DNA from: a virus
Lineage: Duplodnaviria > Heunggongvirae > Uroviricota > Caudoviricetes
Reading direction: 5' to 3' (one strand)
IMG/VR virus record: IMGVR_UViG_2839610755_000005
Length of the DNA stretch: 43,830 nucleotides
Part shown: piece after piece, positions 1-6,000 of the stretch
How positions within the stretch are numbered: the first letter of the stretch is position 1
How the letters are laid out: each line of letters opens with the position of its first letter
Made by a program: the position numbers

Positions 1-3000
1 AAGGCTGTATGGAAAAGGTGGCGGTAAGGCACACACGCCTCGTGAGGCGAAATAATCTCAAATCCACGCAGATGAGAGTGTGATTGATGCGATTGGTGAG
101 GACCGATAGAAGGTCCGGTGAGGGACTGCAGAGTATTCTGGTGAACAAAACCCCACTGACGGACACGGACGGCAATCCCGTGATACACGGTGTGACCGCG
201 GTCTGGCGTGCCGGGGAGCAGGCAGACACCACCGGAAGGCTTTGAGTCCTCCGGAGCTGAAACCGGACTGGGCGTGGAAGTGACGAAGGCAAAACCGGTG
301 ACGCGCACCATTACGTCCGCGAACATTGACCGCCTGCGGTCACCTTCGGGGTGCAGTCACTGTTGGAGACCACCTCAAAGGGCGACCGTATCACTCTTCT
401 GTCCGACTGCTGATTCAGTTGCAGCGTAACGGTAACTGGTGACGGAAAAGGATGTCACCATTAACGGCAAGACCACCTCGCAGTTTCTGGCGTCGGTGAT
501 TCTGGATAATCTGCCTGAGCGGCCCCTTTAACATCCGGATGGTCCGGGAGACAGCGGACAGCACCTCGGACCAGCGGCAGAATAAGACGCTCTGGTCGTC
601 ATACACCGAAATCATCGATGTGAAACAGTGCTACCCGAACACGGCGATTGTGGGGCTGCAGGTGGATGCGGAGCAGTTTGGCGGTCAGCAGATGACGGTG
701 AACTACCATATCCGCGTCGCATCATCCAGGTACCGTCAAACTATGACCCGGAAAAACGCACGTACAGCGGCATCTGGGACGGCAGCCTGAAACCGGCATA
801 CAGCAACAACCCTGCCTGGTGCCTGTGGGACATGCTGACCACCCGCGCTACGGAATGGGAAAACGCCTGGGGGCGGCGGATGTGGACAAGTGGGCGCTGT
901 ATGCCATTGCGCAGTACTGCGACCAGACGGTCCCGGATGGTTTCGGGGCACAGAGCCGCGGATGACTTTCAATGCGTACCTGTCACAACAGCGTAAGGCG
1001 TGGGACGTTCTCAGTGATTTCTGCTCGGCGATGCGCTGTATGCCGGTATGGAACGGGCAGACGCTGACGTTTGTGCAGGACCGTCCGTCAGATGTGGTGT
1101 GGCCTACACCAGCAGTGATGTGGTGGTGGATGATAACGGCGTGGGGTTTCGCTACAGCTTCAGCGCCCTGAAGGACCGCCACACGGCGGTGGAGGTGAAT
1201 TACACCGACCCGCAGAACGGCTGGCAGACCTCCACGGAACTGGTGGAAGACCCGGAAGCCATACTGCGCTACGGACGCAACCTGCTGAAGATGGATGCGT
1301 TCGGCTGCACCAGTCGCGGTCAGGCCCACCGTGCCGGGCTGTGTGAACCGCCCCGGTTTTCCTGGAGAGTGTTTTATCTGTGAACTCAGGCTGCCAGATC
1401 ATCGTTTCTGATGGAAGCATAATAAGCTTTTTCTGCTTCTGCCGGAGGGATATGACCCAGCCTTCCCAGCAATCGTCGATTGTTATACCAGTCCACCCAC
1501 GTGAGTGTGGCCAGTTCCACTTCTGCACGGTTTTTCCAGCTCTTACGGTGTATTACCTCCGCTTTGTAAAGACCATTGATGCTCTCCGCCATCGCGTTGT
1601 CATACGAGTCACCTGTACTCCCTGTTGATGCCAGCAGTTTTGCTTCTTTTAGTCGCTCCGTATAGGCCAGTGATACATACTGAGAACCTTTATCACTGTG
1701 ATGGACTGTGCCGGACGGCCGACGGGCCCACAACGCCTGCTCCAGTGCATCCAGCACGAATGTCGTTTCCATAGACGATGAGACTCGCCACCCCACGATA
1801 CATCCGGAAAACACATCAATGATGAACGCCACATAGACGAAGCCCTGCCATGTGCTGACGTAAGTAAAATCAGCCACCCACAGCTGGTCAGGACGTTCTG
1901 CCACGAACTGACGGTTTACGCGGTCGCCTGCGGAAACGGCTTTCCGGCTGACGGTAGTACGGACCTTTTTACCCCGGAGAACACCGGCAAGTCCCATAAC
2001 CGCCATGAGGCGCGCCACTGTACATCTGGCCACCCTGATACCTTCGCGTAACAACTGGCGCCAGACTTTACGCACACCGTACACCTGATGATTTTCATCG
2101 TATACGCGCTGTATCTCTCTCTTCAGCCAGTCATCGCGCTGCGCACGGGCACTGCGTTTATCCGGATGATGTCGCTGTTGCTGACAGTGGTAATACGTTG
2201 ACGGGGCAATATGCAGTTCACTGCATACCGGTCCGACCCCGTACTGCTCACGCAGCTTATCCAGCAGCGGCATTATTTTTTCCAGAGGCGGTCGAACTCC
2301 GCCTTCGCAAAATAAGCGGAAGCCTGGCGAAGGATATCGTTACTGCGGCGCAGTTCACGATTTTCACGTTCCAGCTCTTTCAGACGCTGACGTTCAGCGG
2401 TGGTGAGTCCACCATCACCGCCCCCGGTATCCCGCTCATGCTGACGAACCCACACACGCAGAGTCTCTGGTGTACAGCCAATCTTTGGGGCAATGGAACA
2501 AATTGCCGCCCATTGTGAGTCATATTCGCCCTGACTTTCCAGAACCATACGGACTGCCCGTTGACGGACCTCGGGGGAAAAACGTGTATTTTTAGTCATC
2601 CTGTTTACCTCTTTCTCAGGGAGTTTAGTCTCCAGGATTCCCGGGGCGGTTCAGTGGGTGATAAAGACCGGACTGCTGGAAACGCAGACGGTGGATTTCA
2701 CGCTCGGGTCACAGGGGCTGCGTCACACACCCGGTGACATTATTGAAATCTGTGATAACGACTATGCCGGGACCATGACCGGCGGACGTGTCCTGTCCAT
2801 CGATGCCGCCAGCCGCACCCTGACGCTGGACCGTGAGGTGACACTGCCGGAGACCGGTGCCGCCACGGTGAACCTGATTAACGGCAGCGGTAAGCCGGTG
2901 AGTGTGGACATCACCGCACACCCCGCGCCGGACCGGATACAGGTCAGTACCCTGCCTGATGGTGTGGAGACATACGGGGTGTGGGGACTCTCCCTGCCGT

Positions 3001-6000
3001 CACTGCGCCGTCGCCTGTTCCGCTGTGTCTCCGTCCGGGAAAACACGGACGGCACCTTTGCCATCACGGCGGTGCAGCACGTACCGGAAAAAGAAGCCAT
3101 CGTGGATAACGGTGCCCGCTTTGAGCCGCAGTCAGGTTCCCTGAACAGCGTCATCCCACCGGCAGTACAGCACCTGACGGTGGAGGTGAGTGCAGCTGAC
3201 GGCCAGTATCTGGCGCAGGCTAAATGGGACACGCCGCGGGTGGTGAAGGGCGTGCGCTTCAGTCTGCGCCTGACCAGTGGTAAGGGAACGGATGCCAGAC
3301 TGGTGACCACCGCCATCACCGCAGACACGGAGCACCGTTTCAGCGGCCTGCCGCTCGGGGAATACACCCTGACGGTGCGGGCGATAAACAGCTATGGCCA
3401 GCAGGGTGAACCTGCCACCACCACCTTCCGGATTGCCGCACCGGCAGCACCGTCGCGGATTGAGCTGACGCCGGGCTATTTTCAGATAACCGCCACGCCG
3501 CATCTTGCCGTTTATGACCCGACGGTACAGTTTGAGTTCTGGTTCTCGGAAAAGCGGATTGCGGATATCAGGCAGGTTGAAACCGCAGCCCGCTATCTTG
3601 GCTCGGCGCTGTACTGGATAGCTGCCAGTATCAATATCAAACCGGGCCATGATTATTATTTTTATATCCGCAGTGTGAATACTGTTGGCAAATCGGCATT
3701 CGTGGAGGCTGTCGGTCGGGCGAGCGATGATGCGGAAGGTTACCTGGATTTTTTCAAAGGAGAAATCGGGAAAACACATCTGGCCCAGGAGCTGTGGACG
3801 CAGATTGATAACGGTCAGCTTGCGCCGGACCTGGCTGAAATCAGGACGTCCATTACGAATGTCAGCAATGAAATCACGCAGACCGTCAATAAAAAACTGG
3901 AAAATCAGAGTGCGGCAATCCAGCAGATACAGAAAGTTCAGGTTGATACAAATAATAACCTGAACAGCATGTGGGCCGTGAAACTGCAGCAGATGCAGGA
4001 CGGACGCCTTTATATTGCGGGTATCGGTGCCGGTATTGAGAATACGCCAGCAGGAATGCAGAGTCAGGTGCTGCTGGCGGCAGACAGGATTGCGATGATT
4101 AATCCTGCGAATGGCAACACAAAGCCGATGTTTGTTGGTCAGGGCGATCAGATATTTATGAATGAAGTGTTCCTGAAATATCTGACGGCTCCCACCATTA
4201 CCAGCGGCGGTAATCCTCCGGCATTTTCCCTGACACCGGACGGGCGGCTGACGGCGAAAAATGCCGATATCAGCGGTAACGTGAATGCGAACTCCGGGAC
4301 GCTCAACAACGTCACGATTAACGAGAACTGTCGGGTTCTGGGAAAATTGTCCGCGAACCAGATTGAAGGCGATCTCGTTAAAACAGTGGGCAAAGCTTTC
4401 CCCCGGGACTCCCGTGCACCGGAGCGGTGGCCATCAGGAACCATTACCGTCAGGGTTTATGACGATCAGCCGTTTGACCGGCAGATTGTTATTCCGGCGG
4501 TGGCATTCAGCGGCGCTAAACATGAGAAAGAGCATACTGATATTTACTCCTCATGCCGTCTGATAGTGCGGAAAAACGGTGCTGAAATTTATAACCGTAC
4601 CGCGCTGGATAATACGCTGATTTACAGTGGTGTTATTGATATGCCTGCCGGTCACGGTCACATGACACTGGAGTTTTCGGTGTCAGCATGGCTGGTAAAT
4701 AACTGGTATCCCACAGCAAGTATCAGCGATTTGCTGGTTGTGGTGATGAAGAAAGCCACTGCAGGCATCACGATTAGCTGAATTTTATAACCCAGATACG
4801 GGCGCCAGAAATGGCGCCTTTTTTATTGCAGAAAAGCGAGAGGTAATTATGCGTAAATTATGTGCTGTTATTTTGTCCGCAGTAGTCTGGCAGGTCGCCG
4901 CTGCTACGCCAGCGAGTGCAGCAGAACATCAGTCCACGCTGAGCGCGGGGTATCTCCATGCCTCGACGAACGTTCCCGGTAGTGATGATCTGAACGGGAT
5001 TAACGTGAAATACCGTTATGAGTTTATGGACGCGCTGGGGCTGATTACGTCCTTCAGTTATGCCAATGCTGAGGATGAGCAAAAAACGCGCTACAGCGAT
5101 ACCCGCTGGCATGAAGATTCCGTGCGTAACCGCTGGTTCAGCGTGATGGCGGGGCCGTCTGTACGCGTGAATGAATGGTTCAGCGCGTATGCGATGGCGG
5201 GTGTGGCTTACAGCCGTGTGTCGACTTTCTACGGGGATTATCTCCGCGTAACTGACAACAAGGGGAAAACGCACGATGTGCTGACCGGAAGTGATGACGG
5301 TCGCCACAGCAACACGTCTCTGGCGTGGGGGGCTGGCGTGCAGTTTAACCCGACCGAATCCGTGACCATTGACCTTGCTTATGAAGGTTCCGGTAGTGGC
5401 GACTGGCGATCGGATGCATTTATTGTTGGTATCGGATACCGTTTCTGACAACAGACGCCGATTTATCTTCTGTAAATATTGTTATGATACGCAGGTTCAT
5501 CCACCTTATGGGGTGAACTGCGTTTGAGGAAACGTAAAGTTACACTGTCCTGAAGCCCGTGGCGTCACTGCTGCGGGCTTTTTTTATTGGTGGAAAAGTA
5601 TGACAGTAAAAATTTCTGGCGTGCTTAAAGATGGCACAGGAAAACCAGTACAGAACTGCACCATTGTGCTGAAGGCCAGACGAACCAGCAGCACGGTGGT
5701 GGTGAACACGGTGGCCTCTGAAAATCCGGATGAAGCCGGACGTTACAGCATGGATGTTGAGTACGGTCAGTACAGCGTCATTCTGTTGGTGGAGGGATTT
5801 CCTCCGTCACATGCCGGGACCATCACCGTGTATGAAGATTCTCAACCCGGTACGCTGAATGATTTTCTCGGTGCCATGTCGGAGGATGACGTCCGGCCGG
5901 AGGCACTGCGCCGTTTTGAACTGATGGTGGAAGAGGTGGCGCGTCACGCTGAGGAGGCGAAGAAGAATGCCGGAGAGGCGGAGACGTCAGCGAGGAATGC

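Follow-up and report, generated by a model that had tools for sequence, protein, structure and literature searches.

Lambdoid prophages of Escherichia coli O157 are known for their frameshifts, deletions, and insertions of insertion sequence (IS) elements (PMC2669165). IS629, which occurs in O157:H7 prophages, duplicates 3-4 bp of its target, is polymorphic among strains, and has 62% of its copies in prophages or prophage-like elements (PMC3271280). Broken genes are also met with in unpolished long-read assemblies, in which homopolymer insertions and deletions (indels) are a typical residual error (PMC8306402). The stretch analyzed here, in its whole length of 43,830 nucleotides (IMG/VR record IMGVR_UViG_2839610755_000005, a tailed phage of the class Caudoviricetes; the window), begins in the tail-tip host-specificity gene J of a lambdoid prophage, which occupies window 1-4781 with its ATG at position 9 and IS629 inside it. 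The indel-riddled 5′ third of this gene is almost certainly not a feature of the organism. With high confidence, the frame-breaking indels in positions 1-944 are consensus errors at the ragged tip of an unpolished long-read contig.

The window equals contig SCKH01000009.1 (43,830 bp) in its entirety; the assembly is GCA_004100305.1, a draft of the E. coli O157:H7 strain C1-010, and the stored part of this contig matches window 1-19535 base for base. Position 1 is therefore a true physical contig end. The contig was traced through the NleA protein of the window; exact look-ups, among about 15 billion proteins, of nine open reading frames across the error sites, which gene callers do not call, and exact DNA searches across two error sites in collections of viral, genome, and metagenome contigs gave no match. 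Strain C1-010 (SCKH00000000) is a stx2c O157:H7 from feedlot cattle, for which Pacific Biosciences (PacBio) Sequel reads of 3-40 kb at 477x coverage yielded 13 contigs with Canu 1.6 (PMC8046923). The same paper answers the question about the platform behind positions 1-1343 that had been raised by an initial annotation of this DNA. The paper nowhere uses the terms Illumina, polish, Arrow, Quiver, or Pilon (PMC8046923). The closed O157:H7 genomes of strains 7784, F1273, and 7409 served as references for comparison base by base, and the 5′ fragment of J was searched for in 5,426 complete E. coli genomes, which gave 4,523 matching records.

The window differs from all three references at 14 sites, every one of them inside positions 1-944. 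The list of differences is identical against each reference, and the three references agree mutually at all 14 sites. Twelve of the private differences are deletions, either of one base (window 10, 75, 99, 120, 337, 389, 437, 715, 838, and 944) or of two bases (window 51 and 221); an extra C at window 523 is the only insertion and window 576 the only substitution. One-base changes within runs of 2-5 identical bases account for 10 of the 13 indels, while the remaining three consist of the loss of a whole GG, of a lone T, and of GA. Seven of the 13 indels are in runs of at least three bases, a class that covers 15% of the sequence (P = 0.001). The initial annotation had counted at least six frame changes upstream of the IS, each of one base in a short homopolymer. 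The frame changes are present in the window, and its two examples (the extra C at 523 and the G missing at 437) were correctly chosen; the number was an undercount, as there are 13 private indels and one shared −1 frameshift (at 1102-1103), and the description holds for 10 of the 13 private indels and fails for the other three.

The events become sparser with distance from the contig end. Successive events are about 25 nt apart close to position 1 and about 120 nt apart close to position 944, and gap size correlates with tip distance (Spearman 0.80, P = 7e-4). Beyond position 944 the damage stops: the 399 bp from 945 to 1343, up to the IS, are exactly equal to the closed genomes, so that the zone does not span the whole 1.3 kb upstream of the element, as had been thought. 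In the next 22 kb there are only three differences from F1273 (at 8068, 8536, and 9781), and the last 21.8 kb of the window are identical to 7409. Against the 14 events in the first 944 bp, the remaining 42,886 bp hold three (Poisson P about 3e-28), a background rate that would predict 0.07 events per 944 bp. The asymmetry between the two ends of J that had been reported is therefore borne out as lying beyond chance. For window 1-1343, the best identity among the 4,523 matching records is 98.8-98.9%. None of the 5,426 complete genomes is at least 99% identical to it, where a genome sharing none of the events would show 98.8%.

Privacy, the near-exclusive occurrence of indels, the bias toward short runs, the thinning away from the tip, and an end well before the IS are all to be expected of a contig tip supported by few reads. 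The consensus of 1-944 would have been built from one or very few corrected reads, whose residual error of about 1.7%, mostly missing bases with a preference for short runs of the same base, would have been kept there. Such errors would then scramble the 5′ part of the tail-tip gene J of a nleA-carrying lambdoid prophage of the Sp9 type, the true J of C1-010 being most likely as in 7409 and F1273. The position at a contig end and the restriction to one assembly fit an artefact of assembly or sequencing, and the indel-heavy, homopolymer-biased spectrum fits PacBio Sequel continuous long reads (CLR) assembled with Canu 1.6. Errors of unpolished assemblies from PacBio CLR or Oxford Nanopore Technologies (ONT) reads (PMC8306402) resemble those seen here in being private to one assembly, dominated by deletions, enriched in short runs, and disruptive of the reading frame, in this case at the end of a Canu contig. 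Unlike such errors in general, those of the present contig affect one of its two tips, and the interior is accurate, with at most three differences in 42.9 kb. Sequencing error of the homopolymer type close to a contig edge, one of the two causes considered in the initial annotation, is thus strongly supported by the PacBio/Canu contig tip, the private indels, and the gradient.

Four points weigh against this explanation. Three of the 13 indels are more than a plain change of one base in the length of a run. The opposite tip of SCKH01000009.1 is free of errors, so degradation of contig tips is not uniform in the assembly. Low read depth over 1-944 is suggested only by the density gradient of the events. 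The genome paper is silent on polishing (PMC8046923), yet its silence is no proof that none was done.

Other explanations of the damaged tip have to be set against these points. The 5′ region of J is multi-copy, being found in 7-12 places per O157 genome, and reads from the genome's 8-11 J paralogues, mixed in one pile-up, might have corrupted the consensus, rather than low depth at the tip. The extent of the damage would suit this, as 1-944 roughly coincides with the part of J that varies among the paralogues, in which the last variable site before the shared frameshift is reference position 866. Of the 49 substitutions upstream of that frameshift that are diagnostic of paralogues, however, the window has imported none, and just 2 of the 14 events come within 2 nt of a site that varies among paralogues, where about 3 are expected (P = 0.84). 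The increase in density toward the tip also suits an effect of depth better than a mixture of paralogues, and corruption by paralogous reads is accordingly considered improbable. It is very improbable that the indels are real mutations of C1-010, stemming from a local burst of frameshift mutagenesis or from faster decay of a dead 5′ fragment of J. Such lesions would escape selection in a gene that is already a pseudogene through the shared frameshift and the IS, and the lost bases are mostly G or C in short runs, which error-prone polymerases likewise tend to lose. The spectrum as a whole argues otherwise: a ratio of indels to substitutions of 13:1 is the reverse of that in natural decay, and runs of two or three bases are weak targets for slippage. 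Decay would also have to explain why there are 14 private events in 944 bp and no more than 3 over the remaining 42.9 kb of the contig, why these events are found in no other genome of a near-clonal lineage, why the damaged zone begins exactly at the contig tip and thins away from it, and why the 3′ fragment of J, which is just as dead, is flawless. A more specific version, in which all 13 indels are real and come from a burst of error-prone synthesis (mainly −1, in G/C runs) over about 1 kb in C1-010, is given equally little credence; its cause could have been break repair beside the IS629-disrupted J, and the contig break could then have come from failure of the assembler to reconcile the locus.

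The second cause that had been considered in the initial annotation was that two copies of J, each with its own history, had been joined through the IS. On this view, two IS629 elements would have recombined and so fused an old, decayed 5′ part of J to the 3′ part of another J. Ingredients for such an event exist, since IS629 is also present in other J genes of related genomes, where it gives three-piece matches, and tail modules are shuffled among the prophages of different strains, the J of Sakai Sp9 being, for example, a different allele. The IS is, however, surrounded by matching GTG repeats, as simple insertion predicts. The same junctions occur in three closed genomes in which the 5′ part is undamaged, and the 399 bp adjoining the IS are perfect. 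When the indels are ignored, the 5′ part is one substitution and the 3′ part none away from the J allele of 7409 and F1273, an allele that differs from neighboring J paralogues at 30-46 sites; moreover, the 5′ part carries this allele's own CC frameshift. With an intact target duplication, shared junctions, a clean 399 bp, and a single allele in both halves, the join is refuted, and its probability is taken to be negligible. A comparison of the two halves of J had been proposed as a means of detecting it. The halves do differ in their identity to other J alleles, which is 96.5-97.7% in the 5′ part and 92-93% in the 3′ part; this unequal divergence belongs to the allele in every strain and is not peculiar to SCKH01000009.1.

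The preferred explanation, consensus error at a poorly covered tip, makes the first ~1 kb of the contig unfit for inferring pseudogene decay, diversity of J alleles, or prophage history. More generally, the tips of unpolished long-read contigs can mimic heavily decayed genes.

The features of the locus are collected in Table 1. J is a pseudogene even without the tip errors, because of a genuine CC frameshift and the IS629 insertion. The motif GGCCTAC is present at the frameshift site in the window, 7784, F1273, and 7409, whereas GGCCCTAC, with CCC in frame, is found in the J of Sakai Sp9, in the Sp10 J of F1273, and in both duplicated copies of TW14359. The annotation of closed genomes labels J as frameshifted. 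Strain 7784 has the CC frameshift and lacks the IS; the frameshift therefore preceded IS629, which entered an already dead gene. J would first have been inactivated by the loss of one base (CCC to CC) and later split by the element, with duplication of GTG.

Table 1 Coordinates of features at the left end of the window
Feature	Position	Strand	Basis or remark
Error-rich contig tip	1-944	+	First 936 bases of J, ATG at window 9; 14 private differences
Error-free 5′ part of J up to the IS	945-1343	+	No differences from closed genomes
Genuine −1 frameshift in J (CCC to CC)	1102-1103	+	Sequence comparison; frame shift seen
Target-site duplication, left GTG	1341-1343		One GTG at the empty site in 7784
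IS629 (IS3 family), 1310 bp	1344-2653	−	Open reading frames (ORFs), Pfam, terminal inverted repeats
IS629 orfB	1386-2273	−	ORF scan
IS629 orfA	2273-2599	−	ORF scan
Target-site duplication, right GTG	2654-2656		One GTG at the empty site in 7784
J 3′ fragment	2657-4781	+	Uninterrupted ORF of 707 codons (2658-4781); Ig-like, tail-tip, and receptor-binding domains
nleG2-1 pseudogene	7298-7871	+	Frameshift in T5 run (7331-7335); outside the artefact

At the point of insertion, the uninterrupted J allele of strain 7784 reads GGGCTGTGGGTGATAAAG and has a single GTG. The presence of GTG on both sides of the element and of one GTG in 7784 therefore indicates simple insertion, in which 3 bp of the target were duplicated; this GTG duplication had been noted in the initial annotation. 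The ends of IS629 begin with TGAACCGCCCCGG; the first 13 bases match at 13 of 13 positions and the repeat is imperfect beyond them. The transposase domains HTH_Tnp_1, HTH_21, and rve were found with Pfam, and the identical element in closed genomes is annotated as an IS3 family transposase with a programmed frameshift. A length of ~1.3 kb, imperfect inverted repeats, overlapping ORFs with helix-turn-helix (HTH) and DDE (rve) domains, and the 3-bp duplication all place it in the IS3 family. Only a few closed genomes (7409, F1273, and TX 376-2) carry the same IS629 at the same site in J, with 100% identity over window 1000-3000. The copy in J resembles the IS629 (isoform IS1203) of O157:H7 prophages in its 1310 bp, its orfA and orfB, its 3-bp duplication, its location in a prophage gene, and its polymorphism among strains, and shows nothing unusual compared with known insertions of the element.

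Downstream of the IS, the 707 uninterrupted codons that had been noted earlier were confirmed, and many closed O157:H7 genomes have a J that matches the 3′ fragment (2655-4781) at 100% identity. Pfam recognizes Ig_J, Ig_J_second, Phage_Tail_Tip, and Ig_GpJ_C in window 2658-4778, and FNIII-A_GpJ and Phage-tail_3 in the translation of the error-free 5′ reference. The domain series of lambda gpJ/TipJ is therefore present in a gene whose reading frame is not intact.

Related J genes have lesions of their own. TW14359, EC4115, and other top two-piece matches were considered as possible sharers of the tip indels and were rejected, as their surplus score is due, in TW14359 and probably in the others, to an internal duplication of ~600 bp in J. 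In TW14359 (NC_013008.1, locus 3009-7087), the orthologous J contains this tandem duplication, is annotated as two partial pseudogenes, and has the motif of the frameshift site twice, 599 bp apart. The same two-piece pattern of matches, over a span of ~1,956 bp, is seen in EC4115 and others, and the duplication is probably present there too. A separate frameshift, close to the 3′ end, is found in the Sp10 J of F1273.

The closest described counterpart of the prophage is Sakai Sp9, the nleA/espI prophage. The order of genes after J is the same in both: lom, tail fibre, the nleG2-1 pseudogene, and nleA, likewise followed by the cargo ISEc8, espO1-2, nleG, and espM1. The J of Sakai Sp9, by contrast, is another allele, intact and with CCC, whose identity is 96.5% over the 5′ part and 93% over the 3′ part, while in the lineage of the window J has the CC frameshift, to which some strains add IS629. 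The tail genes K and I, which would lie ahead of J, are absent from Sakai. A literature search in which defective prophage, O157, Sp9, and frameshift were all four required returned no papers. The IS629 insertion, the CC frameshift, and the frameshift in nleG are ordinary decay of an O157:H7 prophage.

The nleG frameshift had been linked in the initial annotation to the indels in J, since it also lies in a run of five T. It exists, one base short of the intact paralogue, and is identical in the window and 7409. The common cause does not hold, because window 7260-7900 (641 bp) is 100% identical to the Sanger-finished Sakai genome, in which the pseudogene is annotated as nleG2-1. On this sequence evidence, the frameshift is a genuine lesion shared across the lineage.

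The three differences outside the tip lie in and around nleA (minus strand, 8210-9535). At window 8536, a C-to-T change relative to F1273, 7409, and Sakai results in NleA G334R, and the exact protein with G334R occurs only on SCKH01000009.1 among about 15 billion proteins; the change is either a real strain-specific single-nucleotide polymorphism or a rare consensus error. The intergenic T runs flanking nleA are shortened at 8068 (T8 to T7) and 9781 (T5 to T4). Both contractions are private with respect to F1273 and 7409 and are probably residual homopolymer errors from an unpolished consensus.

In the tail-fibre gene (5600-6913), window 6658-6694 has five substitutions in 37 bp compared with 7409 and none compared with F1273, which looks like a short gene conversion between tail-fibre paralogues in one lineage. 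The right end of the contig (43370-43830) lies inside the gene for the large subunit of terminase, ~460 bp into a stretch shared between prophages; in F1273, the adjacent Sp9-type and Sp10-type prophages share such a stretch over at least 13 kb at 99.6% identity. The left end lies 8 bp before the start of the homology with J paralogues. Both contig breaks are therefore located at prophage repeats. Upstream of J, the Sp10-type prophage of F1273 (12671-14609 of the locus compared) and Sakai Sp9 (24148-24773 of the locus compared) lack K and I among the tail genes as well as part of L, and in the Sp10-type prophage of F1273 the deletion point is occupied by IS629. The portal gene is annotated as frameshifted in 7784 (496-3080) and in the Sp9-type (7484-10068) and Sp10-type (3531-6115) prophages of F1273 (positions within the loci compared), and as a single ORF of 2580 bp in Sakai.

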